A stretch of DNA of 20,000 bases. Source: an uncultured virus (IMG/VR IMGVR_UViG_2886339191_000001) (taxonomy: Duplodnaviria; Heunggongvirae; Uroviricota; Caudoviricetes). Shown in pieces: positions 3,453 to 19,775 of the stretch (the first letter of the stretch is position 1; each line of letters opens with the position of its first letter). The notes beneath the pieces are model-generated. The model made no database searches, was not told the DNA's origin, and worked only from the letters and a program-made list of their open reading frames with translations. The position numbers were made by a program, and so were the translations under genes. Location: the IMG/VR virus record IMGVR_UViG_2886339191_000001. One strand, written 5' to 3'.

Positions 3453-5009
3453 TTATAGGCTCCTAACGACTGTGCCACTGCCAAGTTTTTCGAGTTTGTG
3501 GTTTCCCAAAACGACCTCAGTGCCAACAAAAGAGTTCACGAATAGCTGACCGGAGTTCCAGTAGGAGACCACAGCCCCGCTTTCGATCATCTCAATACGA
3601 TCGGGCTTAAGTGCGAGTTGGAATGGTGAGCCTGGGTTGCTGATAATTGCGCCAGTCGGGCCGAAGGAGTAAAAGGTCTGCATGGCCGCGAGATTGCTTG
3701 ATGTGCTGCTTAGCCCGTTAGCCACCTCGGCGACTTGGCCGGCAAGAATTGTCACCGTGCCGTTGGCAGAAAGGTTTAGGTCCCGGCCCACTGTGGGAGA
3801 CAATTCGTTTACGGTCAGGGATCCAGCCACTATGGAGGTCGCGCCAATTGTTCCTGCGGTTATGAGGCCACCGTTCAGCGTGCCTACGGTTGCGCTGCCG
3901 AGGTCAATTGAAGAGATTGTCTCGTGGGATATGGTCTGCACAAGCCATGCGCCACCAATCCACTGCCACTGGGCAATAATGTTGTTCGCAGTATTGTGCC
4001 TGAACCAAAGATCACCCTCGACGACTCCATTGACCGTCGGAGTAGTGTCGGCCCAAGTGAGGTTATTGCCCGTGGTACTGACCACCGTGAGCAGTGCTGG
4101 AGTCAAGTCTCCTGCACTGACGCCGACGATAGTGGTAGTCGAGCTTGGGGACGGCAAAGTGGCCGCGCCGAGGCTGTCAATGGCAATAAGGCGGACGTCG
4201 TAGGAGGCACCAACAATCAACCCAGCGATCTGGATGCTGCCACCACCTCGAACTAGCGCCGAGCCCATGCGGATCCAGGCTGCAGCGCCACTAACCGAGA
4301 CCTCCGCGTAAGTGTAACGAAACTGAGAAGAGGGCAATGCTGACCCAAACAGGCCATTCCAGGCGGCCACCAGCATGCCAGCGCCAGAGCTGAGAGATGG
4401 TGAGTTCGGTGTAGCCATAACTGTGAGGGTCGCTGGGGTGGTTGCAAGAACGTAGTCGCTGAGCACGCTGGAAACGCCCCACGCAGATATTGCAACCACG
4501 CGGATTTGATACTGAACACCAACTTGCAGAGCATCAACCTGAACATTTGTGCTTGGGCTGGTCCCAAGCATCAAGTAGCCCGGGCCGTAACCGATCGTTG
4601 TGGTGTCGCCGTTAGCGATGCTGCCATCGGCATAGAAGACACGGCCCCAGACTTGGTAAATCGTAGGGATGAGTGGGTTTCCGTCGACGTCCAGGTCGCT
4701 CGGGACGATAGACACATTCAGTCGCCCGTATGGTGCTCCGCTTGTATCGAAGTAAGTCGAGGGGGCGACCGTCAAAGCGGTCGCGGCAAGAGTCGCGGGA
4801 ATCCGCTGCATTTCGTATTGAGCGGCGATCTGGGCCTGCACGGAGTTGGCTGAGGCAGTGATGGCATTGCCGGCCATCACGATGGCTGTCTCGCTGTTGT
4901 TGGCGAGAATCTGTCGGCGAGTTTCGTCGTCGCGCAAGAACTTATCGATGCGCCGAGCCCATGGCTGTGCCGCTACGGGAAGCCCATTATCAGTAAGCAC
5001 ATCGCTCAT
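3453..5009 (-). CDS. Minor tail protein with two fibronectin type III-like domains
   Basis: FN3-like strands LQVGVQYQIRVVAISAWG and LIVGASYDVRLIAIDSLG; GDLWF motif; ITAGTIGATSIVAGSLT repeats. Start is ATG 5009 or GTG 5015. Confidence 0.75.
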   Translation of the reverse strand: MSDVLTDNGLPVAAQPWARRIDKFLRDDETRRQILANNSETAIVMAGNAITASANSVQAQIAAQYEMQRIPATLAATALTVAPSTYFDTSGAPYGRLNVSIVPSDLDVDGNPLIPTIYQVWGRVFYADGSIANGDTTTIGYGPGYLMLGTSPSTNVQVDALQVGVQYQIRVVAISAWGVSSVLSDYVLATTPATLTVMATPNSPSLSSGAGMLVAAWNGLFGSALPSSQFRYTYAEVSVSGAAAWIRMGSALVRGGGSIQIAGLIVGASYDVRLIAIDSLGAATLPSPSSTTTIVGVSAGDLTPALLTVVSTTGNNLTWADTTPTVNGVVEGDLWFRHNTANNIIAQWQWIGGAWLVQTISHETISSIDLGSATVGTLNGGLITAGTIGATSIVAGSLTVNELSPTVGRDLNLSANGTVTILAGQVAEVANGLSSTSSNLAAMQTFYSFGPTGAIISNPGSPFQLALKPDRIEMIESGAVVSYWNSGQLFVNSFVGTEVVLGNHKLEKLGSGTVVRSL

Positions 5010-5039
5010 GCTCACTATTCTTGCAGCTTATTGTCAGAA

Positions 5040-7127
5040 TCAGGTCTGACGCAATGGCGCACCAGCAAATTGCAAGTCAGTTCGAGTGGCCCACACCGCA
5101 TCGAAGTCATCAAATGTGCGCAACGCCCACACCGCATCGAAGTCGTCCATGGTCGTGTCAGCAACTGCGGTGAAGCTCGTACCGCTTTCACCGGTTGGGG
5201 CGGTGATGACTCGGTAGACCGAGTCGCCCGAGCGAAAACGGGACCCAGCGATATCGCCAGGCATCAGGCCAGGATTGTCTGTAGTCCCGCTGATATTGAC
5301 AACGGGGCGAGAGAACATCGGCACGGTCTCACTGGCAACTCGATCGGCCATGTCGCGGGTCTGGACATAAGCGGTGTCGATGGTCACCCCGACCTCCCCC
5401 GAGGCCTCTGTGGAGCTGAGCCCTGTGAGATAGGTGAATTTCTCTTTGCGGTTGATGATGCCCGTGCCGCGCACGCGCAGCGTGGAGTAGTAGGTGCTGT
5501 CGCCGGAGCCCATGGAAATTGCAAAGGGTGCCAGTGTGGGCTCATTTGTTCCAGAGGTGATGGTGATGATGATGGTGTCGAAGTTGTCACCCACCTTGAC
5601 CGTCACTGATCCGCCAAGCTGAGTCCAGACCGCCGGATCCAGGGTTTGGATCGATCCTGCTCCACCGTCCACGCTGCCTTGTCCCATGACCGTGTAGACG
5701 GAGCCGGCCGCGCCGTCGGAGGGGGCAACCTCCTTGACACACACTGGCTGCTCTACCGAGACCAGGGAGCCAAGGACGGGGACCTCGATCGTCGTGACCG
5801 AGCCGGAGTCGACTGAGAGGATCGCAGCGTCCATGGTCCAGCCGGCATCCGAGGAAGTGCCTGTCGCGTCGTCGTAGCTGGCGGGTGGGTAAACAAGCGC
5901 ATTTACAAGGTAGCGAGAGTTGTAGTTGAAGACCTCCACGGACTGTGCAAGCTGCGAGGCGTCTGCAGAAGTTCCAATCTGTGTTACGTCGCTGCCATTG
6001 AATGAGCGAGTTCGTGGGAGTCGAATGTAAACGGCATCTCCCAGGTCGCTCAACTCAACTCCTTGGGCTGCGCAGAACTCCTTCACGCGGGTCAAAACGT
6101 TGTCCTTGAACCCGGGTACGGCAACGGGCCGCTCGGCAATGCCAATATCAACGTTCAACGGGCGAGTGACTCCGACGCTCGCAAGGAGAGTGGCAATGTA
6201 GCCGTCTAGTGACCCAACGAACGGGGCGACACGACGGACAACGTTCAGTCGCGCTATGACCGACATGCTGGTGATTGAAACGGTGTTGCCGTCACTGGTC
6301 GGGGAAGAGATTCCGCCTTGGATAATCGCCCGCCCCGAGTCGAGTACGGTCAGCTCTCCGCCGCCGAGCAACATGGAGTCATCGAACTCGCGGATGCCAA
6401 GCTGCACCGTGGTCGCGCCACCCGTGGTGTCTGCTGGTGAGAGTGGGCTGGCATTTTCAGAAATCGTGTACGTGGTCAAATTCTCTACCGCGTAGTACGG
6501 GCCGGGCGCGTTGCTGAGATTGCGTGTGGTGCGGATCGAGCGCGAGCCGTTCGTTGCCCCCTCCCAGTAGTAGAAGTCTGTCGATCCCAGCGCGACTTTG
6601 CTGTCACCGACAAATGGCATCTGCCCATTGGGCATGATCGAGCCAAGCTTCACATCGATCAGTGTGCCCGCTGTGCCATTTCCAAGTCGCAGGACTAGCG
6701 TCCAGTTGGTGGCAGCATCGATTGTGATGGTGGCAAGGGTCGCGGTCCAGGCGGTAGTCGTAGAGAAAATGGCTCCGGTGATGTTGTCTGCCGTCACCTG
6801 ACTCTGGCCACGCCGAAGCCCCAGAGTGCAGCTTGTCTCGATCGCGCTCGTGCGGATCCAGATGCGCACATCAAATGTGCCAGCCGGGATCGCCAGGGAA
6901 GAATCGTTGATTGTAACGACCGCGGCTCCCGCACTCGCGCGCGTAAAGCGCAAGAACTGCTCTGTCTCGTCGGTGCGGAGTATCGGCGCCCCCAGGGTTG
7001 CGCTCGTAGAGCTCCAGAGCCGACGCTGGAGGGTCGCATGAGGAGTAGCAAGATAGTTGAGAGACAGCGGCAGGCCGATCGCATAGCGCGGCAGTGGAGG
7101 CTGCTGAATGCCGATATTTACAGCCAC
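5040..7127 (-). CDS. Minor tail protein, baseplate hub / Tal-like position (695 aa)
   Basis: Second gene after the tape measure gene; overlaps the upstream gene's end; beta-rich; N-terminal CBM-like module ending YYWEGATNGSRS. Confidence 0.7.
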   Translation of the reverse strand: MAVNIGIQQPPLPRYAIGLPLSLNYLATPHATLQRRLWSSTSATLGAPILRTDETEQFLRFTRASAGAAVVTINDSSLAIPAGTFDVRIWIRTSAIETSCTLGLRRGQSQVTADNITGAIFSTTTAWTATLATITIDAATNWTLVLRLGNGTAGTLIDVKLGSIMPNGQMPFVGDSKVALGSTDFYYWEGATNGSRSIRTTRNLSNAPGPYYAVENLTTYTISENASPLSPADTTGGATTVQLGIREFDDSMLLGGGELTVLDSGRAIIQGGISSPTSDGNTVSITSMSVIARLNVVRRVAPFVGSLDGYIATLLASVGVTRPLNVDIGIAERPVAVPGFKDNVLTRVKEFCAAQGVELSDLGDAVYIRLPRTRSFNGSDVTQIGTSADASQLAQSVEVFNYNSRYLVNALVYPPASYDDATGTSSDAGWTMDAAILSVDSGSVTTIEVPVLGSLVSVEQPVCVKEVAPSDGAAGSVYTVMGQGSVDGGAGSIQTLDPAVWTQLGGSVTVKVGDNFDTIIITITSGTNEPTLAPFAISMGSGDSTYYSTLRVRGTGIINRKEKFTYLTGLSSTEASGEVGVTIDTAYVQTRDMADRVASETVPMFSRPVVNISGTTDNPGLMPGDIAGSRFRSGDSVYRVITAPTGESGTSFTAVADTTMDDFDAVWALRTFDDFDAVWATRTDLQFAGAPLRQT

Positions 7128-7984
7128 GAGCCGACCTCCACAAGCTTTGCCGCAGCCGATACTTCAGCACGGACGTTGACCGTTGATAGTGCGGTAACGG
7201 TGGGTTCATCGGCGAAGGCGCAACCAGAGTTACCGCGGCCCGAGATGTACCCACCTCCATCGGGCATGTCATTGCTGGGAAGGACCTGGAGGATCAGAGC
7301 GGTCAGAAGAATGCTGTCGCCAACCGCACCAGCGAGCTGTATGTCAACACCGCTGACCCCAACGAATGTGTCTACCACTCGTTGGCCGGCGAGCCCGAGC
7401 GGTGTTAGTTTGCGCGCTGCGCCACCGACAGGTGTTACTTGCACGCCTGCTGTGCCGGTGGCGGAACCGTGAAAGCCAGCCCATAGCTTGAATCCTGGCG
7501 GGATCGGCACGTAGATCGAGCGAGGGGTGGTTGCTGCCGTGAAGGTGTAGACAGCGGAAAAAGTCGGATAACCCTGAGTGTTCGTCGGGGTTGCGACGGC
7601 GGACGGCCGAGCATCAACAAACATAGAGGGAGCATCCGAAGCCGCCAGGGCCGCATGCCCGAGGTTCACCGGAGCAAGGTTGAGTTCCATCTCCATCGGG
7701 TCGAGGAAGTAGATGAGGTTAGAAGCCACCATGAATTTGGCCAAGGGGTCGTTGTCGTAAACGTGCCCTGCGTAATCGAGAATCGGGCGCATCTCGAGGC
7801 GGCCAGCGACAGGCCAGCTCATCTCGTACTCGGCATGCGTAGTGCGGGATCCAAGGATCGCCGCCCCTCCGTTGACGAAGTTGAGCTGAGTGGTGAACTT
7901 CTTGCGCGAGAAATTTGCTGAGGTAGCGGGGGCCTTCACCCATTGCTCGTGCCCACGGGTGCCAAACCACATTTGCTGTGCCAT
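7118..7984 (-). CDS. Minor tail protein, distal tail (Dit)-like position (288 aa)
   Basis: ATG abuts the tape measure stop (TAGATG) with a GGAG RBS; size and position typical of Dit. Confidence 0.7.
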   Translation of the reverse strand: MAQQMWFGTRGHEQWVKAPATSANFSRKKFTTQLNFVNGGAAILGSRTTHAEYEMSWPVAGRLEMRPILDYAGHVYDNDPLAKFMVASNLIYFLDPMEMELNLAPVNLGHAALAASDAPSMFVDARPSAVATPTNTQGYPTFSAVYTFTAATTPRSIYVPIPPGFKLWAGFHGSATGTAGVQVTPVGGAARKLTPLGLAGQRVVDTFVGVSGVDIQLAGAVGDSILLTALILQVLPSNDMPDGGGYISGRGNSGCAFADEPTVTALSTVNVRAEVSAAAKLVEVGSWL

Positions 7985-10900
7985 CTATTTCACTCCTGCT
8001 CTGACAAGTCGTGCATTCGCGGCGTTCGCGGCCTGCGCGATGACACCATCGCTCACCGTGAGCGACCCAGCAAATTCCTGGAAGAGATTGCGGAAGAACA
8101 TCCGGTCGGAGGCGGACATCTCCGATACTGCGGAGGAGCCACGGCCCGAGGCAGCAGGCATATTGCCGCCGACTGGTCCTCCATTGGCGTAACCACCGAG
8201 CGATCGTTGGTGCATGCGAGCCAAGTTTTCGACCCCGTAGTACCGAACAGATTCTTGTGGGAAGACGTACTCACCAGCATGGACGATTCCGCGGGCGTCG
8301 TACTTTCCACCGCCACCGGTATAGCCGCCCTGATCGAAGAACTTCATGCGAGTTCCAGAATTGAGGGTAGCGCCACCAGAGTTTTGGATGGCTGCACTGA
8401 TCGGGTTGTTCTGGAAGTAGTTAACAAAACCTGGCCGCATGCCTGCAGCCAGCAAAGCGCCGGTTCCATACAGCTCGTTACGGTCCCAAGTTGCCTCGAT
8501 CTTTACCGATCCCTTTGAGAGGTTGATAGCGTCGAGGGCTGCCTGCAACGCCAGCTTGGCATCGTAATTACGGCCATCGATCGTCACGGTCCCGCGGCCC
8601 TGGTCAATAGCGGCAAGGGCCGCGCTGAGGACTTTTTTGGCGGGGATATTAGTGCCATTGATGGTGACTGTCGCCGTTGACTTGTTGACGGAGCCAAGGA
8701 GCTGCATCAGTTCATCACCAGCTCCAACTGTGTTGCCGTCGATGTTGACTGTGCCAACTGATTTGTTGATGCTGGCGACGATTTGATCGCGCGCAAGTTC
8801 AGCTTTTACGATCTTGCCGTTGATCGAGACGTAACTTTCACCGCGCTCAATTGCCTTGAGCACGTCGCCAAGAGCCTGACTTGCTCCCTTCGTCTGGCCG
8901 CCGATCTTTACTTTCGGAGCCTTCTCGTCGATGCCCGTATAGAGCTTTTTTAGTGCATCGTTGACGAGTATCGTGTCGCCGTTGAATACAATCGTTTTTT
9001 CTAGGTTGAGCCCGGCGTCGGCGATGAGCTTCGCCATCAATGCCTCAAAGTCGAATCCTGAACCGACGCCGCCGCCGCCTCCTCCTCCGCCCCCGCCACT
9101 TGCGTTTGCGGCTTTTAGCTTGGCCTCGAACTCGGCTATTGCTGCATCTACGCCCGTGATATCCAAGCCGACGGTGATGTTACGTGGGATGCGGTTGATT
9201 GCCAGCGTCATGTCATCGAAGGAGCTGGCGTAATCGAGGATCGCGGAACGGGAGAAGCCGGCCTGGGTGGCCTGTGCAATGAACTGGGCCTTGAGTTCGG
9301 CAACCTTCTTCTTGAGCTGGTCGGCCGGCATACCCGTGGAGGCATAGGTGCCAATCAGGTCTTGGTATTTAGAGACCAGATCAGTGATGACTCCACGGTT
9401 TTCGATTGCCGCAGCAGAGTTACCAGTAAGGCTCGTCGACGAAGCCTCCTGTGCATCAGACATCTCTTTTACCGCTTTGGTCTGATCCCCATTGGCCGAA
9501 CTGAGGTCAGCTTGGGCAGCGGCCGTATCGGAAGCGTTCTTGGCCAAGTCAGCCTGAATCTTCTTGACCCGCTCAGCATCTCCGTACATTGTGGCGACAC
9601 GCAAGTAGTATTCGCTGTTGCTCTTATCTGCCGCGAGCTGAGAGAGAGTGGCGTTGGCGTCGCGGCCCTTTTGGTTGGCGTTTTCGATTGCCTCGGCGGC
9701 GCTGTCAATTTTCTCTTTCGCATCAGCGGAGTTGCTGGCGATATCGAGCCAGCTTTTGGAAAGGCCGTCCAGGGAAGTTTGAGGGGCAAACCGCATCTCG
9801 TTCATGCGCCTGAAAACCCCAGACAAGTCATTGCCGTAGTCCGCGAGAGTGCGGATTTGCTTAGCGGCCCCGCTGGCAGATTTGCCCACTCCGCCGACAC
9901 CCTTGGAGGCACCGGCGGCCCCAGACTTCATGGCAGCCAGCATCGCGTTGACATCAGCGCCAGTTTTGTTGGTAGCAATAGCTACCCCAGTAAGCTGGCC
10001 CATGGTGGCCAGAAGTGGTGTGAGCTGCGCGACGGAGGCGAAACCCCCAGCGATGAGTGCGGAGAAGAGGGCAGAGATTTGTCCGGCAGCGGCTGGGCCG
10101 GATCCAGCAGACTCGACGATATTTGTCAGGACAGAGCTGAGGGCAGATCCACCAAGAGCAGCAGTGGCGCCGCTGCTGACGAATGCGCCACCGAGAGTGC
10201 TGAGGTCTCCGACGAGCGACTGCGCAGCGATGCTTTGCTGGAAGAATCCATCGATAGTTTTCTTGGACTCGTCAACGAAAAGCACTGCGGCAGCTCCGGC
10301 ACCGGTAGCGGCATCGGCCTGCGCTCTTAACGCGGCCGTGGTTTGTTCTGCGGAAACCCCAACTGCATTGTTTGCAGCCGCTTGTGCTGCTGTTGCTTTT
10401 GCTGAATCTGTGACGGTGGTTTTTATAGCACTTGCACCTTTGGCCATGTCAAAAAATGCTGGTGCCGCAGACTTTAGCCTTGTAAGGTCTTCGTCTGATA
10501 TGGCTCCAATTTTTATCCCAGATGACGAGAGTGCGCGGTCATTACTCAGCCCAGCTTTGAGACCAGCCAAAAGCATGACGAGCTTTTCACGGCTAATTTT
10601 TAGCTGATTTGCCATGGAGTCCGTGAGCTGTGTCACGTAGTCAGCTCCACCCTTGACGGGATCCCCGATGGATGCTTTCAGCAGCGCGGCCGGGTCGCCA
10701 CCAAAGCTTTGGATAGCTCGGTTGCCGGCATTGTCATCAAACAGTTTCTGCACTGTTTTGTTGTTCGCAAGCTCGTTGGCAAGAGCCGCTTTGGTGTTCT
10801 CGCCGTAGGCAATTGTCTGGTTTCTGATCTTTTCCGTGGCGTTAGTGGTCCCGCTATTCAGCTTGACCTGTGCCCCAGTGGCGCTCTCAATGCCGCCCAC

Positions 10901-13624
10901 CCAATCTTTTGCTGCAACGGTTGTGTCTTTGACGGTGGTGGTGATGGTGGTGATTGCTTTGCCGGTTTTTGCATACTCAGCCTGGTCTTTTGCCATGGCC
11001 GTGCTGATCGAGCTTGAGTCACCGAAAAACTCTTTGGCCGCAGCACCTGCTGTCTTCTGTGATTCGCTGAATTGGACGAGCGCCGCTGCGGCAGTGCCGA
11101 TAAGGACAATCAGCGCACCAATGCCCGTGCTGATGAGTGCAGCTTTCAAGCCAATAGAACTGACTGTTGCGAGCCGCTGGGCACCCGCAAGCCCATTTGT
11201 GGCGACTATGGCAGTACCGGTTGCCGCCGCATTAGCGCCCGTGGCAACCGTGCTTGCAGCGGTAGCGGCAGTAGCGGCTGCGGTTGCTGCAGTTTTTGCT
11301 GCCGTAGCTGCGGTTGCCTCTAGCATGAAAGTTCGCAGAGCGAGAAGTGATCCAGTAAACCGCGCTGTACCGGCTGCTGCGAGTGCAATCACACCAGTAA
11401 GGGCAACGATTGCAAGAGCTGCAAAAATGAAAGGTTGGTTGCTTTTTTCTCCCGCGAAATCGCTGATTAGTCGGAAAAAATCAGTCAGAGATAGCACCAG
11501 GTCATTGAGCGGTCCCTTTGCCGCCCCGCCGATGGAGGCGAACATGGCGGTTATCGTGTTGCTGAGGATTGTTAGCTTGGCGGCGAGAGTGTCGTTCGTG
11601 ATGCCGTACTGGGCGCTTAGCTCGTCGGCATTCTTGAATCCATCGGCAGCGTTCCCGAGCGACTGCTGGAGGATGTCGGTGTTCTGAGCGAGCTTGAGTA
11701 GCGCGGGGATATCGCGGGTGCTAGTGAGGCCGAGGGCTTGCAGAGTGGCGATTGCGCTGTCGCCAGAGGCGTTGACGCCTGTGAGTAAGTCCACAAGGCT
11801 CGAGCCGGCGTCGGCCTTGAATGCTGCGCGGAACTGGTCACCCGTTTGCCCAGAGAGCGCGCCAAACTTTGCAAGGGCGGCCGTGTCTCCGTTGATTGCT
11901 TCTTGGATTGAGATAAATAGCCGGGTAACCGTCGAGCGCGCAGCCTCTGGGGCAATTCCGATGGAGGCAAGCGCACCAGAAAGTCCGATGACTTCATCGG
12001 TAGTGAGTCCGACCGTGCCAGAGATACCGGCGATGTTCTGGGAAATGGCGATGATCTGCGACTCAGTGGCGACCGAGTTGACACCGACCTTGAGGATGGA
12101 GGAGGCGAGTGCTTCGTAGTTGCTGTTGACGTCGGGCAAAAGTTGGTTGAGACGGCCGAGCGCGGTGCCTGAAGCCTCAATGGTTACATTTGTCGTTGCC
12201 GAGAACTGAGCGGTGACTTTGGTGAAATGCGTAAGGTCATTAGCGGCGATGTTGAGCTGGCCACCGAGAGTACCGATCGCAGATAGGTCACTAAACGAGA
12301 CTGGGATTGACTGGGACAGATCAATAAAGTCAGCCTTGAGCGACTGTGCGGCCTGCCCAGTCGCGCCGACTGTGCGCTGCACCTGGGCGAAGTCTTTCTC
12401 GAAACTGATGGCAGCGCCGGCCGCAGCAGCGAAGGCGCCCACCAGAGCCGTACCAGTTATAGCCGCCGCGAAGGAGACATCGTAGAGTGCGTAGCGCACT
12501 CGTGGCAATCGACTTTCGTCAATACCTAGAAATGCCTTTTTTGGGCCACCACCTGGCTGATCCTCAGCAGCCTGGAGGGCCTTGGACGCAGCTCGGCTTT
12601 TCTCTTTGGCAGCAACGACGCGGTTGGTCGCCTCGAGCTGCGCCTGCAGGTTTCCGGGAGAGCTACGCTGAACGGCCTGCAGCTCCTTCTCTGCGACAGT
12701 GAGCTGGGTGGTAGCAAGCTGCGCGCGTTTCTTGGAGGCAGCGACGACCCCGTTATCCCTGACATCCTTATCGAAGGCGTTGTCCAAATTGATCTTTGCG
12801 ACTTTGCCCCTGGCGGCATCGAGCTGCTCCTGCAGCTTGGCCTTCGCTGCAGTAAGCCGGGTGGTTTCAGCAGCGGCCTTGGCCTCTTCAGCGGTGAGAC
12901 GCTGCGTGGCGGCGCGCTCTTCCTCCATAGCTGCAGCGACATTCCGAGAGGCATTTGCCAGCGTAGGCAAAGAGGCGTCTTTCTTTTCCAGGCGAGAAAG
13001 TGCAATCTGTGCGGAAGCCAGGTTGGTAGATGACGTGGCAGCGCGGAGCTGTGCAGCCCCAAGCGCCCCGAGCTTGGCAATCTGCTCGTCTTCACCGTTT
13101 GCGCTCTGAACAGTGGCAATGCGTTTCTCAGCGGTGGCGATTTCGCTTGCTGCCGTCGTGAGGACGTTGGCATAGCTTGCAGTACGAGCAGCAATCGTGG
13201 CGAGCTTATCGAGCTGGTCACTGCCCCTCTCCTTGTTGGGATCGAGCTTCTTGCCCGGCTCGTCACCGGTCAGTGCGTTTTTGCGGAAATTCGAGTAGGC
13301 GCGGGACGCATCATTGACTTCCTGGACGCGCTTGGTCCATGCAGCGGAGCCGCGGATTGTCGCCGACTCTTCTGTATTGAGAGAGCGAGTCAGCTCGCCA
13401 ACCTGAGTTGTGAGAATTGTGACTGCAGTCTTGTTTCCAAGAAGGTCTTTCTCAAGCTTCTCTAGTGCCCTTCCGGTTGCCTGAGTTTTGCCTTCAAGGC
13501 CGGCCATGCTTGTGATCGTGCCGTCAAGACTTTTCTCGAGTCCCTTGAGCTGATCGAGGGCCTGAGCGAGCCCAGTGATGATGAAGTTCAGACGTGCTTC
13601 AAGGCTGAAATCTTCGGCGGCCAC
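7985..13624 (-). CDS. Tape measure protein (1879 aa)
   Basis: Very long Ala-rich helical ORF directly after the frameshifted chaperones. TP901-type core (AISFEKDFAQVQRTV...LGGQL...GVNSVATESQI), hydrophobic segments, and C-terminal GGYTGGGGKYDARGIVHAGEYV motif. GTG start with AGGGAG RBS. Confidence 0.95.
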   Translation of the reverse strand: MAAEDFSLEARLNFIITGLAQALDQLKGLEKSLDGTITSMAGLEGKTQATGRALEKLEKDLLGNKTAVTILTTQVGELTRSLNTEESATIRGSAAWTKRVQEVNDASRAYSNFRKNALTGDEPGKKLDPNKERGSDQLDKLATIAARTASYANVLTTAASEIATAEKRIATVQSANGEDEQIAKLGALGAAQLRAATSSTNLASAQIALSRLEKKDASLPTLANASRNVAAAMEEERAATQRLTAEEAKAAAETTRLTAAKAKLQEQLDAARGKVAKINLDNAFDKDVRDNGVVAASKKRAQLATTQLTVAEKELQAVQRSSPGNLQAQLEATNRVVAAKEKSRAASKALQAAEDQPGGGPKKAFLGIDESRLPRVRYALYDVSFAAAITGTALVGAFAAAAGAAISFEKDFAQVQRTVGATGQAAQSLKADFIDLSQSIPVSFSDLSAIGTLGGQLNIAANDLTHFTKVTAQFSATTNVTIEASGTALGRLNQLLPDVNSNYEALASSILKVGVNSVATESQIIAISQNIAGISGTVGLTTDEVIGLSGALASIGIAPEAARSTVTRLFISIQEAINGDTAALAKFGALSGQTGDQFRAAFKADAGSSLVDLLTGVNASGDSAIATLQALGLTSTRDIPALLKLAQNTDILQQSLGNAADGFKNADELSAQYGITNDTLAAKLTILSNTITAMFASIGGAAKGPLNDLVLSLTDFFRLISDFAGEKSNQPFIFAALAIVALTGVIALAAAGTARFTGSLLALRTFMLEATAATAAKTAATAAATAATAASTVATGANAAATGTAIVATNGLAGAQRLATVSSIGLKAALISTGIGALIVLIGTAAAALVQFSESQKTAGAAAKEFFGDSSSISTAMAKDQAEYAKTGKAITTITTTVKDTTVAAKDWVGGIESATGAQVKLNSGTTNATEKIRNQTIAYGENTKAALANELANNKTVQKLFDDNAGNRAIQSFGGDPAALLKASIGDPVKGGADYVTQLTDSMANQLKISREKLVMLLAGLKAGLSNDRALSSSGIKIGAISDEDLTRLKSAAPAFFDMAKGASAIKTTVTDSAKATAAQAAANNAVGVSAEQTTAALRAQADAATGAGAAAVLFVDESKKTIDGFFQQSIAAQSLVGDLSTLGGAFVSSGATAALGGSALSSVLTNIVESAGSGPAAAGQISALFSALIAGGFASVAQLTPLLATMGQLTGVAIATNKTGADVNAMLAAMKSGAAGASKGVGGVGKSASGAAKQIRTLADYGNDLSGVFRRMNEMRFAPQTSLDGLSKSWLDIASNSADAKEKIDSAAEAIENANQKGRDANATLSQLAADKSNSEYYLRVATMYGDAERVKKIQADLAKNASDTAAAQADLSSANGDQTKAVKEMSDAQEASSTSLTGNSAAAIENRGVITDLVSKYQDLIGTYASTGMPADQLKKKVAELKAQFIAQATQAGFSRSAILDYASSFDDMTLAINRIPRNITVGLDITGVDAAIAEFEAKLKAANASGGGGGGGGGGVGSGFDFEALMAKLIADAGLNLEKTIVFNGDTILVNDALKKLYTGIDEKAPKVKIGGQTKGASQALGDVLKAIERGESYVSINGKIVKAELARDQIVASINKSVGTVNIDGNTVGAGDELMQLLGSVNKSTATVTINGTNIPAKKVLSAALAAIDQGRGTVTIDGRNYDAKLALQAALDAINLSKGSVKIEATWDRNELYGTGALLAAGMRPGFVNYFQNNPISAAIQNSGGATLNSGTRMKFFDQGGYTGGGGKYDARGIVHAGEYVFPQESVRYYGVENLARMHQRSLGGYANGGPVGGNMPAASGRGSSAVSEMSASDRMFFRNLFQEFAGSLTVSDGVIAQAANAANARLVRAGVK
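8510..8995 (-). repeat. Six tandem degenerate 27-aa (81-bp) repeats in the tape measure C-terminal region
   Basis: TIVFNG.., KVKIGG.., YVSING.., TVNIDG.., TVTING.., TVTIDG.. recur at an exact 27-residue period. Confidence 0.85.
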
Positions 13625-13670: not shown

Positions 13671-14123
13671 TCAGGAAACCCTCAGAGAGTCCATGATTTC
13701 CTTCCGGCGCTCCATCTCCGCTTGGTAGTACCGGTCCCGGTAAGTGACGAAATCGCTGTCGTCAGTTGTGTACGGCATCGGGCGGAGGGTTGAGCCAGGC
13801 GGCTTCTTATATGCGTCGTCTTTGCGCTTGCCCTCCTCGAAAATATCGACCGCTTTTGTTGCCTCACAAGTGTCTTCTTCTATGCGGAAACGGATATGCG
13901 GGTCGTCGCTGTGGCAGATATAGACAGGCAGGCCACAGTGGCATCGCTCAGACTCAAGGGTCTGTACCGCCTCGATGAGGAGGTAGTCCCACTCGCTCCA
14001 CTGGGCGTTTGTCGGATTGCGCTTGCGGAATAGAAACGCCGTTGGCGGCAACTTCGCGGAGATTGCCGCCTTGATGATCGAGACGTACCTGGCACCGGCG
14101 CTAGATGCCAGGTAGCCCGCTAA
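13671..14123 (-). CDS. Tail assembly chaperone C-terminal (gpT-like) part, reached by -1 frameshift
   Basis: The -1 frame is open from the slippery site (LAGYLASSAGARYVSIIKAAISAKLPPTAFLF...) into track ORF 13671..14051. Contains the Cys/His cluster CHCGLPVYICH..C. Confidence 0.85.
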   Translation of the reverse strand, partial: LAGYLASSAGARYVSIIKAAISAKLPPTAFLFRKRNPTNAQWSEWDYLLIEAVQTLESERCHCGLPVYICHSDDPHIRFRIEEDTCEATKAVDIFEEGKRKDDAYKKPPGSTLRPMPYTTDDSDFVTYRDRYYQAEMERRKEIMDSLRVS

Positions 14124-14923
14124 AAATCCGCTTGTGCGATGGCCGACTCAGAGATGGCGTTCCTGAACTGCAGGTCATTGACCGCTGCGAAGAACTTTGA
14201 GGACTGGCTGATCGGCATGAAGTCGCGGATTGTCTCAATCTCTTCTAGCGAGAGCTTCGTGCCAGAGCGACCATTCCTGTTGTCGCGGAATCGCCCCACC
14301 ATGTCAAAGGCCAGCTCAAGGAGCTGCTGCTCCTCGAACTCATCCTGTCGATCCTCGGGGATCCCCTTTTCGGTAAGCCCGAGAGTCTTCCGTGCTCGTC
14401 GTGCTGCCCCACGAGCGATCTTGTAAGGAATGGCGCGCAGCTCGATTGACAGCGACTCCTTGTTGACCAACGCCCGGACCTCATCGGCCGCCATGTCCAT
14501 CTCAATCTGCTTCGCACGCAAGGGCGCCATCTGCTCGAGCAGGGCAATGCGCTCACTGATTTGGCGCTCTCCTTCTTCGATCTGGTCTTGAATCTCGCCG
14601 GCGTCTTCAGCATTGGCCTTCTTGATATCGCGCTTGAGCTTGGCGACAACTTTCTTGAGTTCGTCGACGCCGCTGCCGTTGCGCTCAGCCTGGTCGAGAA
14701 TGTTGCGGAGCTGGCCAAGTGCCGCTTCGATGCCAATGAGCTTCTCGCTATTTACTTCGTCGTAGCCGAGGTCAATTTTGACTGTCCGCATATCGCGGTT
14801 CTTGATGTTGTCGATCAGACTGCCGGATTCGATGAAGGAGGCCTTGGCCTCTTCGATAATTTCCTCCACCTCGTTCCGCTCGACATTGATGTCGTCGGAA
14901 GTGGTTTCCAGTGCGTCGGTCAT
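14120..14923 (-). CDS. Tail assembly chaperone (gpG-like, about 267 aa)
   Basis: Lies between the tail tube and tape measure genes; acidic and helical. ATG 14923 has a strong GGAGGAG RBS; ATG 14959 is an alternative leaderless start. Confidence 0.85.
   Translation of the reverse strand: MTDALETTSDDINVERNEVEEIIEEAKASFIESGSLIDNIKNRDMRTVKIDLGYDEVNSEKLIGIEAALGQLRNILDQAERNGSGVDELKKVVAKLKRDIKKANAEDAGEIQDQIEEGERQISERIALLEQMAPLRAKQIEMDMAADEVRALVNKESLSIELRAIPYKIARGAARRARKTLGLTEKGIPEDRQDEFEEQQLLELAFDMVGRFRDNRNGRSGTKLSLEEIETIRDFMPISQSSKFFAAVNDLQFRNAISESAIAQADF
14122..14129 (-). other. Programmed -1 ribosomal frameshift site G GAT TTT T
   Basis: Minus strand reads GCG GAT TTT TAG at the end of the chaperone ORF; a -1 slip joins the downstream ORF in frame, as in the lambda G/GT arrangement. 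Confidence 0.85.
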
Positions 14924-14991
14924 TGCTCCTCCAAGCATTGTGGGCTGCCTCCCAGCCATTTCCCAGTGTAGGCCGGAAGCCTTTAGCCAGC

Positions 14992-15038: not shown

Positions 15039-15800
15039 TTACGCCGTGGTTGTGATTACGACCGCGGTCGACGCAAGCGCGCCCGGGAAGGTGACGCTGA
15101 TGTTTGCCGTACCCACCGCGATGCGCTGCACGATGCCGTGCTCGGAGACGGTGGCCTTGCTCGGGTCGCTGGTGACCCACTTCGCACCGACCGTGATGTT
15201 CTTGCCCTGGTAGATCGCCTTGAGGCGAGCGACAGAGCTGACGATGCCCGAAGCGGCACCCGCCACAATGGACACCGTAGGGGCAACTGCGGCCGCTGGA
15301 GCGACGATTCCACGCACTGCCATGTCGGACTGCGGAAGTAGCTCGACAACCCACGAATAGCTGGATGCGCCACGCACGTCGCTCGGGGCGTCCGTAAGGA
15401 CGTGCCAGGCGTTGTACTCGTGGCCCGCAGCAAGAGCCGACGAGGCGCTTTCCACCGGGCGGTTCAGGAAGATGATGTCGCTTCCAGCGGGCTTTATGCC
15501 CACCTCGGCAGCACGGAACGTCGAGGTAGTGTCGCTGTCCTGCGCCTTGAAGCACGAGAGGCTGCCACCGAAATCGCCGTTACCGGAGGTCTTGGCGCCT
15601 GCAGCGTCCGCGAAGGAGCGGTCATCTGCAGACAGGCTCGCCTTGGTGTTGAAGTTGGTGCCGTCAAGCTTTGCGGCATCCGTGATGTTGATGAATGTCG
15701 CTGCTTCGGTAGCGGTGATTGCCTTGATGTTGGCAACCGCAGTCGCCGGGGCGAAGAACCACGCGAGGTTCTTGTTGGTGAGTACGCGCTTGTTGGGCAT
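15039..15800 (-). CDS. Major tail (tube) protein with C-terminal Ig-like (Big_2) domain
   Basis: Actinophage tube-like N-terminus (INITDA..DDRSFADAAG..VLTDAP); Big_2-like KWVTSDPSKATVSEHGIVQRIAVGTANISVT; followed by a terminator and the chaperones. Confidence 0.85.
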   Translation of the reverse strand: MPNKRVLTNKNLAWFFAPATAVANIKAITATEAATFINITDAAKLDGTNFNTKASLSADDRSFADAAGAKTSGNGDFGGSLSCFKAQDSDTTSTFRAAEVGIKPAGSDIIFLNRPVESASSALAAGHEYNAWHVLTDAPSDVRGASSYSWVVELLPQSDMAVRGIVAPAAAVAPTVSIVAGAASGIVSSVARLKAIYQGKNITVGAKWVTSDPSKATVSEHGIVQRIAVGTANISVTFPGALASTAVVITTTA

Positions 15801-15811
15801 GTCTGGATTCC

Positions 15812-16396
15812 TTAGAGGAGGATCGCGTCTTCAACGCTGATGGACTTGGTGACGAGGGAAACCTCGATGGTCTGGTTGTTGCCGTCTCCGTACATGTCGA
15901 TCGGGTGATCTGTTTGCACGTAGAAGGCGTTGTACTTCTGGCCCGCCAACGCAGCAGAGTTGTATGCGAATCCGATCCGGCGGAAGGCGATGTAGCGCAC
16001 GCCGCGCGCACGGATGTTGTCGTTTGCCAGGTTGTAGTTCGAGTCTGTCGCGGCGCTGAGCTTGTCCCGGAAGATGGTGAGCTTCGCGTCGTAGTTCTGA
16101 CTGGTCGGGACGACGGAGTTGCCGCTGGCGTTGATTGCTTTGTCGCCGTCGGTCTCGGAGCTGCTCTGGGCGAGCTTTGAGTCGTCCTTCACCGAGAGGG
16201 TGATGTTTCCGCCGGCGCCTGTGTATCCGGCGCTGGAGCGGTCAACGATGGACAGGTACTCGTTGACTGCGGCTGCGGTCAGGACGCCGATCTTGAAAGA
16301 TCCGGCCACGCCGATCGACTGGGGATCACCGAGAACCTCGACAGCGGGTATAAGCACCCATGCCTCGGTGTCCGCTGCAATAACTTTGTCGGCCAT
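15812..16396 (-). CDS. Second tail-tube-like protein (194 aa), paralog of 15039..15800 lacking the Ig domain
   Basis: Shared motifs: AWVLIPA vs AWFFAPA; GNIT vs INIT; AGQKYNAFYVQTDHPIDMYG vs AGHEYNAWHVLTDAPSDVRG. Confidence 0.75.
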   Translation of the reverse strand: MADKVIAADTEAWVLIPAVEVLGDPQSIGVAGSFKIGVLTAAAVNEYLSIVDRSSAGYTGAGGNITLSVKDDSKLAQSSSETDGDKAINASGNSVVPTSQNYDAKLTIFRDKLSAATDSNYNLANDNIRARGVRYIAFRRIGFAYNSAALAGQKYNAFYVQTDHPIDMYGDGNNQTIEVSLVTKSISVEDAILL

Positions 16397-16578
16397 TAGG
16401 AGGCCACCTCTCTTTTGCTCTTCGTGGTGACGGGGGCTCCGTCATTGGATTCGGTTTCGGGGGTGACCTCGGGCTCGGCCGTAACTAGCCGCAGCTCGGG
16501 AAACAGGTTTGCAACAGCATCGCTGTACTGGCCCACCAGACCGGTGATTTCGTGCTTGTAGGACTTGAGTTCGCTCAT
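16396..16578 (-). CDS. Small hypothetical protein (60 aa, MSELKSYKHEITGLVGQY...)
   Basis: TAATG stop/start overlap with the next gene; ATG 16578 lies 7 nt after a TACACT -10-like hexamer. The longer track ORF overlaps the upstream gene. Confidence 0.7.
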   Translation of the reverse strand: MSELKSYKHEITGLVGQYSDAVANLFPELRLVTAEPEVTPETESNDGAPVTTKSKREVAS

Positions 16579-16591
16579 ACAGCTAAGTGTA
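16579..16591 (-). promoter_or_regulatory. Candidate leaderless promoter for the small ORF and tube genes
   Basis: TACACT (16586-16591) is 7 nt before ATG 16578 with no SD, in a 49-bp intergenic gap. Confidence 0.55.
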
Positions 16592-16627
16592 GAGAAACCT
16601 ACAGCGATTTTCCAGAAACGCGGTATG

Positions 16628-17071
16628 CTACCCGGTCGACATGTTGATCGTGGTCGCCATAGCCGCAACTTTGGAGAAGATCGCTGGGCGGCTGATGGTG
16701 CGTGTGGCTGACCCATTCGAGGCATACGGCATGCGAATTGGGGTGGCGTTTCCATCGCTCGGTATCCAGTTGACCAGACGTTTGACAACCTCCCTGAACA
16801 GCGCGTTTAGCGATTTACGGTCTCCGGCGTAGCAGCCAACAACAAACGTCATCGTGTAAGGGATGTCGTCTTCGCCGTCGCCCATCGAGCGGCCACCGCC
16901 ATTGAGCGCGAACGGGGCACCGACAGACAACACAATGTAGGGCCGCGCCTTGCCAACAGAATCGAGCAAGACATCTGCATCATCTGGGGCCATGTCCAAG
17001 ATCCGTCCGCCGGCTAGGTCGCTCAATTTTTCGCGGATGCTGGTCTCTTCGTCGATGCCGTCGAAGCTCAT
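16628..17071 (-). CDS. Tail terminator protein (147 aa)
   Basis: Position before the tube genes, RPYIVL motif, typical size, ATGA overlap with the upstream gene. Confidence 0.7.
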   Translation of the reverse strand: MSFDGIDEETSIREKLSDLAGGRILDMAPDDADVLLDSVGKARPYIVLSVGAPFALNGGGRSMGDGEDDIPYTMTFVVGCYAGDRKSLNALFREVVKRLVNWIPSDGNATPIRMPYASNGSATRTISRPAIFSKVAAMATTINMSTG

Positions 17072-17550
17072 TTGTATTCTCGCTTTACATAGTCGGCCAG
17101 GCGCTTCTTGAACTCAGCCTTGGCCACCTCTGAGGCATCAAGGAGAGCGTGGACCGGGGCAACCGCAGTGCCCTTGGCCGTGAAGCCGTTCTCTTGCAGC
17201 TCGAAGTAAGACTTGCCGCCCGCGGCATTCGCTTCCTGCCCTCCGTCGAGCCAGCCGAAGCGACCTTGAAGCTGATCCCGGTTGACCTGGTATGCCTCGT
17301 GCTTGAAGTCGTCGATGTAGTCGCCAGTGTCAATACGGCCAGGGCGCCCTTGCCCCATCGCTTCACGTTCAATACCGGTGCGCGTAATCGACATTTCAAT
17401 ACGGTCTTGCGCAATTTCTTGCCCTGATTGCATCGCCTCCCCCATGGCACCCGACATCTCGGCCATCAGTTCGTTGCGAATGCTTTCAAGCTTCTGCCGA
17501 ATCCCATCCACAAGGGTCTTGGCGCTTTGCTGGCCAAGAGTTGTACTCAT
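17068..17550 (-). CDS. Tail completion protein, HK97 gp10-like (160 aa)
   Basis: GRIDTG and YFELQENGF motifs; ATG 17550 forms an ATGA overlap with the upstream stop, so it is preferred to 17592. Confidence 0.7.
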   Translation of the reverse strand: MSTTLGQQSAKTLVDGIRQKLESIRNELMAEMSGAMGEAMQSGQEIAQDRIEMSITRTGIEREAMGQGRPGRIDTGDYIDDFKHEAYQVNRDQLQGRFGWLDGGQEANAAGGKSYFELQENGFTAKGTAVAPVHALLDASEVAKAEFKKRLADYVKREYK

Positions 17551-17996
17551 GATGCAACCCAGACCGCAGCGGGCGTGCCAGTTGACTGGCACTCGAGCTT
17601 GTTGAGCGCAGCGATGGAGCCGGTGGGTGCGGCCAGTACAGCGAAAGCGAATTGAGTCAGGGCGGGATTGTCCCCACCCGGCAAGACTCGAACGATCATT
17701 CCCTTGCTCACTAGCGGGTCGCCGGCTTCGGGAATGAACTGGACCCGGTAGCGGACGATTCCCTGCAGGAGTCCGGCCTCAGTGGCGACCGTCGCGCCGA
17801 TCGCCTGGACGTAGGCCGCGCGCGGCGCAATCACAACGGCTGGCGTAGAGACGCCACCGGTGTCTGTCAGCGGGTCATAGGGCGTGACCGTCTCGGTCTG
17901 GGGGTCGAGCACAACGATGGTGTCTCGGAGCATTCCCGCATCGACGAGCGCGGTGCGAATTGCCCCAAGAAAGTCGGTGTCGATTTCCAGTGCCAT
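17547..17996 (-). CDS. Head closure / head-to-tail stopper-like protein (DUF6093-like, 149 aa)
   Basis: YDPLTD motif, RAAYVQ, YRVQF, GMIVRV..DNPAL; first gene of the canonical stopper-completion-terminator-tube series. Confidence 0.65.
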   Translation of the reverse strand: MALEIDTDFLGAIRTALVDAGMLRDTIVVLDPQTETVTPYDPLTDTGGVSTPAVVIAPRAAYVQAIGATVATEAGLLQGIVRYRVQFIPEAGDPLVSKGMIVRVLPGGDNPALTQFAFAVLAAPTGSIAALNKLECQSTGTPAAVWVAS

Positions 17997-18024
17997 GTGC
18001 TAAGAGTACCGGTTAGCTGGCTAT
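17997..18024 (-). promoter_or_regulatory. Candidate leaderless promoter for the tail operon with adjacent palindromic site
   Basis: TACTCT (18003-18008) is 6 nt before ATG 17996 with no SD; palindrome TTAGCTGGCTAT at 18013-18024. Confidence 0.55.
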
Positions 18025-18025
18025 T

Positions 18026-18217
18026 TCAAGCAGCGCTTCGAGGCTTCCGCGCTCGAGGGGCCATAACCCAGTCATCGACCCATTCTTCTTTTGTGCGCCA
18101 ATCAGACTTTGCTGCGGGCTGCACCCCTTTGAGTTCACCATCGCGCAGAGCATTGCGCACTGTTTCTGGGTGCCTTCCTGAATGCAGGGCAGCTTCTCTC
18201 GTGGTCATCCACGCCAT
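18026..18217 (-). CDS. xis: Excisionase / recombination directionality factor (MerR-like HTH_17, 63 aa)
   Basis: WMTTREAALHSGRHPETVRNALRDGELKG..WR winged-HTH signature; AGGAGG RBS; divergent from the integrase. Confidence 0.85.
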   Translation of the reverse strand: MAWMTTREAALHSGRHPETVRNALRDGELKGVQPAAKSDWRTKEEWVDDWVMAPRARKPRSAA

Positions 18218-18232
18218 CTTGTCCTCCTATGT

Positions 18233-18287
18233 TTAGCCAGCAAATTGAGTGTAGCGCCATTGCGTGCGGCAAAGTAAAGTGACGTGC
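18233..18287. promoter_or_regulatory. Divergent xis/int control region
   Basis: Minus-strand TACACT at 18248-18253 (xis); plus-strand TAAAGT at 18275-18280, 7 nt before the int ATG (leaderless); TTAGCCAGCAAA at 18233-18244. Confidence 0.55.
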
Positions 18288-19406
18288 ATGGCATATACCG
18301 AAATTCTCCCCTCGGGGAAGTATCGGGGGATCTACCTGTTGCGCGACGGAAGTCGGCGATCAGCAGGATCATTCCCCCATAAACGAACAGCACAAAAGGC
18401 AGCCGATGCCGCAGAGGTGGAAGCGCGCGCCCTGAAATGGCGTGACCCGCGCGCGGGCTTGCGTACTTGGGGGGACTGGCAGAAGGAGTGGTGGGCCTCT
18501 CGGGCTGTTGAGCCAGGCACTCTCTCACGCGACCTATCCGCAGTAACGAAGCACATGATGCCAAAGTGGGGTGATGTCCCGCTCTCGGACATCACGCGGT
18601 TCGCCGTAAAGTCATGGGCGGCTGAGCTGGCTAAATCAGGCCTGGCCGTCGGCACGGTACGTCGCCACGTCTACGTGTTTAGTGCGTCACTGGCTGCAGC
18701 AATGGATGCCGAGGTGATCGACTACAACCCTGCCTTCAAGATCAATCTTGTCGGCGGACATCAGGAGGTCCGGCGCTACCTCAAGGGCATTGAGCTGCAG
18801 CGACTGCTCAGCAAGTTAGATGGAGTCAACCTGGCGATGATTACTACCCAAGTTGGCACTGGGCTGCGCTGGGGCGAACTAGCTGGGCTCCAGGTCCACC
18901 GCGTCGACCTTGAGCGCGACGTTGTGCGCGTCGCTGAGGTGTGGGATGACCAGGGGCATCGGCTCAAGCCATACCCGAAAGGCAAGCGCCCACGGGAGGT
19001 CCCAATCCCCGAATGGGCGAAGCCGCTCCTCGCCCAGCAGATCGGTGAGCGCAAGGAGGGGTTCGTCTTCTCCGCGCCAGAGGGCGGCGTTGTCAGCTAC
19101 CACAACTTCCGCATCCGAGTGTGGCTGCCGGCGGCCAAGGCTGCCGGGCTCGCCGGAGCAAAAAATCACGACCTGCGCCACACCTACGCCTCCATGCTTA
19201 TCCAGAATGGTGTCCCGCTTGCCGTCGTCGGGCAGCTCCTTGGCCACCGCTCACCGCAGACCACCGCGCTGTACGCCGACCTAGAGGGGTTGCCGAGTGA
19301 CACGATCTTGAGTGGCTATGCGCGGGCCGTGATCGAACGCTTGACAATGGCGCGTGGGGATTTCGTGGGGAATTGGTCGCCAGCAAGTGCTAGTTATTCA
19401 CTGTGA
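18288..19406 (+). CDS. int: Tyrosine recombinase (phage integrase, 372 aa)
   Basis: N-terminal arm-binding region MAYTEILPSGKYRG; catalytic residues in TGLRWGEL, PKGK, HDLRHTYAS, LLGH and TALY; adjacent to a tRNA-derived att core. Confidence 0.97.
   Translation: MAYTEILPSGKYRGIYLLRDGSRRSAGSFPHKRTAQKAADAAEVEARALKWRDPRAGLRTWGDWQKEWWASRAVEPGTLSRDLSAVTKHMMPKWGDVPLSDITRFAVKSWAAELAKSGLAVGTVRRHVYVFSASLAAAMDAEVIDYNPAFKINLVGGHQEVRRYLKGIELQRLLSKLDGVNLAMITTQVGTGLRWGELAGLQVHRVDLERDVVRVAEVWDDQGHRLKPYPKGKRPREVPIPEWAKPLLAQQIGERKEGFVFSAPEGGVVSYHNFRIRVWLPAAKAAGLAGAKNHDLRHTYASMLIQNGVPLAVVGQLLGHRSPQTTALYADLEGLPSDTILSGYARAVIERLTMARGDFVGNWSPASASYSL
19353..19374 (+). repeat. Tandem 11-bp direct repeats, candidate integrase arm-type sites
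   Basis: CGTGGGGATTT directly followed by CGTGGGGAATT, about 125 bp from the att core and overlapping the int 3' end. Confidence 0.65.
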
Positions 19407-19424
19407 CTCACCGTGCTGCGAACT

Positions 19425-19455
19425 CGCAAATCCCCGGAAACACGGGGTTTTTGCG
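19425..19455 (+). terminator. Intrinsic terminator after int, possibly bidirectional
   Basis: CGCAAAT-CCCCG-GAAACA-CGGGG-TTTTTGCG stem-loop with U tract. Confidence 0.7.
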
Positions 19456-19498
19456 TGCTTGACCGTGATTGCATGTACTTCAATTTGTCCGCTAAGCC

Positions 19499-19545
19499 CA
19501 CTCGTAATGAGAAGGTCGTCAGTTCGATTCTGACAGGCGGCTCCA
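19499..19545 (+). mobile_element. att core (attR or attP): 3' half of tRNA-Thr(CGT)
   Basis: CA-CTCGTAA-TGAGAAGGTC-GTCAG-TTCGATT-CTGAC-AGGCGGC-T-CCA gives the anticodon loop (CGT), T-arm, acceptor 3' strand and CCA. The 5' acceptor strand and D-arm are missing upstream. Confidence 0.9.
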
Positions 19546-19550
19546 TGTAA

Positions 19551-19588
19551 ACAAAGGGATCGGGGGCCGCCAGTCCCGGTCCTTTTGT
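19551..19588 (+). terminator. Hairpin after the tRNA 3' fragment, likely a tRNA terminator
   Basis: ACAAAGGGATCGGGG pairs with TCCCGGTCCTTTTGT (15 bp including G-U pairs). Confidence 0.65.
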
Positions 19589-19775
19589 CTGAGGTGTAGC
19601 CGAAGGTTTAGCCGATCGACCACGATCGCTTCATCGCCATCACTACCCAGAGTGGGCAATACTGATGGTTGGCTTTCCTCAATAAGAGAGCTACAGCCAA
19701 CCAAGCAACTCGCAGCATCAACCGCACGGGAGCAACCATTACGGCATCGAAGTGACATCTGTTGCTCAACGCACG

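Follow-up and report, generated by a model that had tools for sequence, protein, structure and literature searches.

The 20,000-nt window analysed here (the whole stretch of DNA under study, from IMG/VR record IMGVR_UViG_2886339191_000001; positions 216262-236261 of contig C1 in bacterial genome G000, G000:C1:216262-236261) is very probably the right-hand end of a complete, long-tailed temperate phage of 66.7 kb that is integrated in a tRNA-Thr(CGT) gene, is split between its adaptor and stopper genes, and has virion genes on promoters of their own. A cassette consisting of the attachment site attP, the integrase gene int, and the excisionase gene xis lies between the adaptor and the stopper, and the head and tail blocks therefore stand at opposite ends of the prophage. 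Excision would restore the usual virion order, and this circular order is seen directly in relatives. The element is ordinary in kind, being a complete prophage, and unusual in layout, in that the split is kept across divergent phages and several integrases. The host family is probably Microbacteriaceae, judging from named relatives.

At the prophage end that lies in the window, the first virion gene encodes the head–tail stopper (17547..17996, minus strand; DUF6093, PF19586). No head gene lies between it and xis, and a 29-bp gap (17997-18025) alone separates the two. The xis gene (18026..18217, minus strand, as the tail genes) encodes an excisionase-like HTH_17 protein that matches phrog_66, PF12728 (E 7.8e-6, just under the cut-off), and TIGR01764 (E 9.7e-5, under the cut-off). 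The tyrosine integrase gene (18264..19406, plus strand; PF00589, E 3.3e-23; phrog_1, E 1.6e-59) may instead start at an ATG at 18288; it runs antisense to the virion genes and is followed by a terminator-like hairpin (19432..19447, plus strand; z -3.0). A 12-bp near-palindromic box between xis and int (18233..18244, plus strand) is a candidate operator, and a direct-repeat pair (19353..19372, plus strand), which is also found twice beside the other copy of the attachment site (att), probably represents integrase arm-type sites. The att core (19499..19543, plus strand) is the 3′ part of tRNA-Thr(CGT) and marks the right end of the prophage. An earlier, model-made reading of this DNA (the sequence-only reading) had described the order stopper, 29-bp gap, xis, int, and att, with which the positions of the open reading frames (ORFs) and the family matches agree, and had called the tail ORFs intact; all are open and match tail families. 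It also placed the att core correctly in tRNA-Thr(CGT), but the exact repeat measures 45 bp and not the 47 bp that it gave. The predicted model of the stopper has a predicted local distance difference test (pLDDT) score of 92, and its 22 highest-ranking VIA-align matches are all neck or stopper-type chains of phages (best match: Z 9.7, root-mean-square deviation (rmsd) 3.4, 114 aligned); these fold matches support the assignment of the stopper to 17547-17996.

A second copy of the core, for which the sequence-only reading advised a search, is located at G000:C1:169057-169101, inside an intact tRNA-Thr(CGT) gene (C1:169028-169101). The exact 45-bp direct repeats are thus 66,703 bp apart, with one copy restoring the tRNA, and imperfect similarity extends to 93 bp at 90% and takes in the tRNA terminator hairpin. 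Such att sites are usable for integration vectors.

The head module (C1:169511-176686) directly adjoins this second copy on the same strand as the tail genes, as predicted by one of two options in the sequence-only reading, namely that head and tail modules lie at opposite prophage ends. Its order is terS, terL, portal, protease, decoration protein, major capsid, and a 144-aa adaptor. The products of terL (phrog_2, E 1e-19), portal (phrog_10963, E 2.5e-66), protease (phrog_15531), and capsid (PF25209) genes have family matches, and terS is called by its position and by matches to the gene preceding the terminase in relatives. The adaptor model (pLDDT 92) best matches a neck chain of phiCD508 (Z 9.4, rmsd 3.7, 97 aligned), and its five best Foldseek matches are likewise neck or connector chains of phages (E 0.006-0.4); position and modest structural support suggest that this gene encodes the adaptor. 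Solved structures searched by sequence yielded no helpful match to the adaptor or the stopper, and Pfam gave no match for any of 34 adaptor proteins.

Terminase, portal, protease, capsid, neck, tube, tape measure, and lysis genes all lie between the att copies, with helicase, primase, and endolysin genes in the middle of the element, and all virion ORFs examined are open. The predicted circle runs terS-terL-portal-protease-decoration-capsid-adaptor, a small convergent membrane gene, attP, int, xis, stopper, and tail. In a single DNA run, possibly the one from which the window derives, the prophage forms one 66,718-base contig with a depth of 364, versus 390-393 in the flanks; the contigs do not separate attP from attL/attR. 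The small membrane-protein gene between the adaptor and the tRNA (L001:9271-9525, plus strand), which is convergent with the head genes, has similar counterparts in that position in genomes G140 and G401 and is a candidate for superinfection exclusion.

Recurrence of the Split in Related Phages

Among other bacterial genomes, the stopper is present in two of 400 of the same family, and the capsid profile matches in two of 31 of the same genus. The head–tail split recurs in three other genomes. G389 contains a 57.4-kb prophage that uses tRNA-Thr(CGT) as in G000 and is split alike, with virion proteins that are 25-51% alike. In G140, the arrangement is spread over two contigs, one with head, adaptor, and tRNA-Thr(CGT), and the other with att, int, xis, and stopper. 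In Leifsonia aquatica (L022, also G401), the split element measures 74.6 kb and has an unrelated integrase as well as a probable 17-bp att in a transporter gene.

A 167-bp stretch to the right of att in G389 (C1 ~538250-538410) is 91% identical to the phage-side arm of G000, which suggests that this tRNA also holds a second element or else a scar. Genome G402 carries a prophage remnant of ~2.3 kb at tRNA-Thr(TGT) (G402:C4:31011-33400), in which the order is tRNA-Thr(TGT), adaptor, a truncated capsid gene fused to the last int codons, and a second att copy. A tRNA-Arg(CCT) gene is located between the adaptor and att in two relatives (G401:C9 ~261170-261250; G402:C4:31399-31470).

A capsid alignment search of viral records yielded 338 candidates, 80 loci of which were examined, and 33 of these records plus three named phages (36 in total) were scanned with PF00589. 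The integrase profile matches 10 of the 36, and in all 10 the integrase lies at the adaptor–stopper junction. In L045, L047, and L076, the adaptor, int, and stopper stand on one continuous contig in attP form; the L060 contig, likewise continuous and in attP form, spans adaptor to int, and the six other integrase records have the head and tail blocks at opposite ends. The 26 records without a PF00589 match include many fragments, and among records at least 90% complete, six of 12 match. Of the 80 loci, 27 have the adaptor next to the stopper; the integrase scan covered a minority of the distant ones among these 27. Integrase-free relatives mostly have the two genes adjacent, and L065 has a 1.7-kb insert between them without an integrase. 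Single-protein scans of viral contigs with the stopper or adaptor, and the first stopper alignment, returned no matches.

A second set of 19 records was found via a DndB-like gene (see below) instead of the capsid. Six of these have an integrase, in every case downstream of the adaptor, and in none of the five records with both adaptor and stopper are the two adjacent. G467 is a complete circle in attP form with the order stopper-int-adaptor, and G477 has int on the head side of att. Cargo of 1-7 kb lies between the adaptor and the cassette in L045, L048, L064, L066, and L068, some of it fibre- or hydrolase-like by eye. The integrase-free L065 has a cluster of 20 tRNA genes (L065:228-4330).

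The sequence-only reading had likened the arrangement to that of mycobacteriophage Giles. LilHazelnut (MF919517; cluster Q, Giles type) is 99.99% like Giles (PMC6509537). Like G000, it has a tyrosine integrase and xis among its late genes, with int antisense to the late genes and xis in the sense of the genes that follow. A cassette among virion genes is thus common to both, but LilHazelnut carries its cassette between the minor tail genes and the lysis genes, a single minor tail gene lies on the far side of it, and the head and tail blocks stay together, whereas the cassette of G000 lies between adaptor and stopper; the cluster Q architecture is therefore absent from G000. Tyrosine-integrase prophages of actinobacteria that target tRNA genes (for example, cluster J) resemble G000 in their ~45-bp core restoring the tRNA 3′ end, in att downstream of int, in paired arm-type repeats, and in a divergent helix-turn-helix (HTH) xis (PMC3706429); unlike G000, they have their cassette near the genome centre and their virion genes in one arm. 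The layout of G000 departs from the usual rule of virion genes in one arm.

Homologues of the virion module occur in other phages. Lytic phages of Microbacterium (Hortus1, PhillyPhilly, WaterT) and the Clavibacter phage CMP1 have homologous virion genes in the same order as G000 at 23-40% identity, and share an exonuclease, the order terS-terL-portal-protease-decoration-capsid, two tube paralogues, and neck-region insertions. CMP1 and WaterT have the adaptor next to the stopper; in PhillyPhilly, three genes, none of them an integrase, lie between the two. Scans of three records of these phages detected neither a tyrosine integrase nor a serine recombinase nor a DndB-like gene. Cluster ED is reported to be lytic, to carry inserted genes ahead of its connector genes, and to lack both a repressor and an integrase (PMC7302621); G000 has the homologous virion module of a cluster ED-like phage and differs in having an integrase. 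G000 and its kin are temperate relatives of a group of phages that has been described as lytic almost throughout. No description of a split at the head–tail junction was found in the literature, which is weak evidence of absence since subscription papers fell mostly outside the search.

Predicted Promoters and a Candidate Repressor

The sequence-only reading had given the first tail gene a candidate promoter of its own. A strict sigma-70 scan of 16300-19700 found no promoters; a leaderless stopper promoter is predicted at 18003..18024 (minus strand), with TANNNT (18003-18008) 6 nt before the start codon and a copy of the 12-bp box (18013-18024). This promoter is without the late motif, TTTCTG-N6-8-CTG-N9-11-TANNNT, of which there are five sites in the element and none in the other 2.78 Mb of the genome. 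Late motif sites lie 6-7 nt before the start codons of terS, portal, protease, adaptor, and the small gene preceding the tube genes; the last of these (16586..16618, minus strand) is the predicted late promoter for the small gene (16396-16578) and the tube genes. The 12-bp box occurs 11 times, versus 0.12 expected, and its sites include the xis/int gap, the stopper promoter, and the region upstream of the DndB-like gene. Both late motif and box recur in the phage DNA of G401 and G140, with none in their host flanks.

In all 13 split phages, as against one of 16 others, TANNNT lies 5-9 nt upstream of the stopper start, by a count made by eye and without a shuffled background. In non-split phages, the stopper start mostly abuts the adaptor, and the motifs suggest that split-type phages have an additional promoter before the stopper. 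The G000-type box is in the stopper promoter of four of the 13 split phages (G000, G140, G401, L044), with variants seen by eye in several more. Because the virion genes carry several predicted promoters of their own, att need not cut any transcript. The sequence-only reading's phrase of a virion operon split by att is therefore right as to the head/tail split, but probably not as to a single operon being cut. Read-through across attP is unlikely given the convergent small gene, the att hairpin, and the antisense int. If, as these motifs indicate, the virion genes are expressed from several leaderless promoters, the split would cost nothing.

Directly before terS, a gene for a 456-aa DndB-like DGQHR protein (C1:176761-178131, minus strand; L001:16761-18131) matches PF14072 and TIGR03187 above cut-off and has the DGQHR signature motif. 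It differs from DndB of dndBCDE systems in that its TIGR03233 score of 25 falls far below the 328-bit cut-off and in that it is located in a prophage. The gene is found in 14 of 14 split records and none of 19 others. It has no match among 50,697 GenBank phage records, and a sequence search of solved structures with its alignment gave no useful match. The 82-aa XRE-type HTH protein of G000 has no match in the relatives compared, and the other HTH genes match at most two relatives. As the DndB-like gene is common to all split phages, it is the best repressor candidate, although that it is the repressor binding the 12-bp box is, taken alone, somewhat less likely than not. Lysogeny is probably held by a repressor bound to the box at the xis/int and stopper promoters. 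The link raises the question of whether a nucleotide-binding ParB-fold protein can act as a phage immunity repressor. A small gene (L001:18336-18581), for which no assignment was obtained, is divergent from the DndB-like gene, with a 12-bp box between them.

Alternative Explanations and History of the Junction

In the window itself, only tail genes follow xis, int, and att, and the sequence-only reading accordingly offered, as its other option, a self-integrating element with a tail alone (a tail-donating satellite or mobile tailocin). The full head module beside the second att copy refutes this: terminase, portal, capsid, and adaptor genes are present and open, replication genes and a lysis gene lie between the att copies, and the capsid and adaptor are also present in each of the three genomes checked that have a stopper relative. 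A tail-only satellite or tailocin is ruled out by head and packaging genes inside the element and has next to no probability. Capsid-forming phage-inducible chromosomal islands (PICIs) and F-type tailocins have only an integrase and a long non-contractile tail gene set in common with G000; unlike them, the G000 element carries genes of its own for head, packaging, replication, and lysis. A false lead is removed in this way: where a window is short or an assembly is broken, prophages of this kind look like elements with a tail alone or a head alone. A one-off rearrangement in a cryptic prophage would fit the depth of the prophage, which does not exceed that of the host in the one run, and the deleted relative in G402, but the examined virion ORFs are all open, and the identical layout occurs where virion proteins are only 25-50% alike and in attP-form contigs. 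This recurrence in divergent phages rules it out, leaving it a very slight probability. A further alternative is that tail genes are transcribed only once excision at attP joins them to the promoter of a head operon. The head block, xis, and tail block do share one strand in the circle, and the stopper promoter lacks the late motif; however, predicted promoters stand before the stopper and tube genes, the convergent membrane-protein gene, antisense int, and a strong att hairpin (z -4.0 on the head-gene strand) stand in the path, and in relatives the adaptor and int are separated by cargo of up to several kb. Such gating is improbable.

The position of the cassette could also be selected and not merely tolerated, through coupling of neck genes to excision by a shared repressor box, through an effect on packaging, or through swapping of heads and tails. 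The terminase gene is 7.6 kb from the host boundary, so packaging before excision might take mostly host DNA, and crosses by integrase might swap heads and tails. One slot is occupied by at least four unrelated integrase groups in both orientations and with several att targets, the head tree does not place the split phages in a single clade and conflicts with the tail tree, and the box is in the stopper promoter of four phages. Against this, recombination in flanking genes would preserve the slot without selection, and integrase-free relatives also have neck-region insertions (PMC7302621) and discordant head and tail trees. Selection is therefore a rather doubtful possibility. An equally tentative reading is that these are undescribed temperate members of the phage group known from lytic isolates, sharing a three-part lysogeny kit in which the junction position is functional. 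The kit would speculatively comprise an exchangeable cassette at the head–tail junction, an operator-bearing neck promoter by xis, and a DndB-like repressor; the last might conceivably be a nucleotide-sensing ParB-fold immunity repressor that replaces a cI-type protein. If true, the junction position would tie virion completion to excision.

Several points weigh against the reading of a complete temperate phage with a recurrent split and its own promoters. The late motif and box were first read from the G000 sites that they describe, and G389 has the DndB-like gene but neither the G000-type box nor the late motif. The stopper box scores 9-10/12 against each phage's own DndB promoter, about equal to random stretches, in a test without power. 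Given that the adaptor is a helical protein, its fold match is a modest one (Z 9.4, with no Foldseek row at E 0.001). L084, a distant relative of the adjacent type, has a serine recombinase upstream of its terminase, and G476 is split although PF00589 finds no match in its record. Because the phages are related to one another, the counts lack independence.

The 14 integrases form four or more groups that are under ~32% identical; 10 are antisense and four sense to the virion genes, and phages with the cassette at this junction use several att targets. On the head-protein tree (32 rows), the split state requires three changes and a single clade is rejected (approximately unbiased (AU) test, p 1e-73), with L072, L083, L087, L105, L108, and L112 excluded from tree and test; the tail tree (30 rows) requires two changes. 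One origin for all split phages is rejected on the head tree, and module exchange weakens any count of origins. Since head, tail, and DndB trees disagree in places, no number of origins can be given for the split. It is most simply read as an old arrangement in which cassettes were swapped in place, with losses or exchanges in lytic lines. The adaptor–stopper junction probably tolerates insertions, and different integration cassettes would have replaced one another there.

Tail Genes and Other Features of the Element

Beyond the stopper, the tail genes continue on the minus strand. A neck gene (17068..17550; phrog_16765, of unknown function) lies between stopper and terminator, is gp10-like by position only, and has its equivalent position held in relatives. 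It is followed by the tail terminator gene (16628..17071), whose profile, built for this analysis, matches WaterT gp36, annotated as a tail terminator, and, after the small gene mentioned above, by two tandem tail tube paralogues (15812-16396 and 15039-15800; PF25595). The second paralogue has an immunoglobulin (Ig) domain, and the tube pair is common to most relatives. A tail assembly chaperone pair (13671..14959) is called by phrog_20192 for the downstream frame and by position for the upstream ORF, and its putative frameshift was inspected by eye. The 1879-aa tape measure protein (7985..13624) and four tail tip or adsorption genes (7118-7984, 5040-7127, 3453-5015, and 538-3450) are assigned by protein family matches.

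Elsewhere in the prophage, an Acb2/Tad1 hairpin-domain gene (L002:3535-3807, minus strand; PF24729, above cut-off) likely encodes an anti-defence sponge protein. The prophage also has a DprA-like gene (PF02481; L002:12982-13884) and an RNA ligase gene (PF09414; L002:2542-3330).

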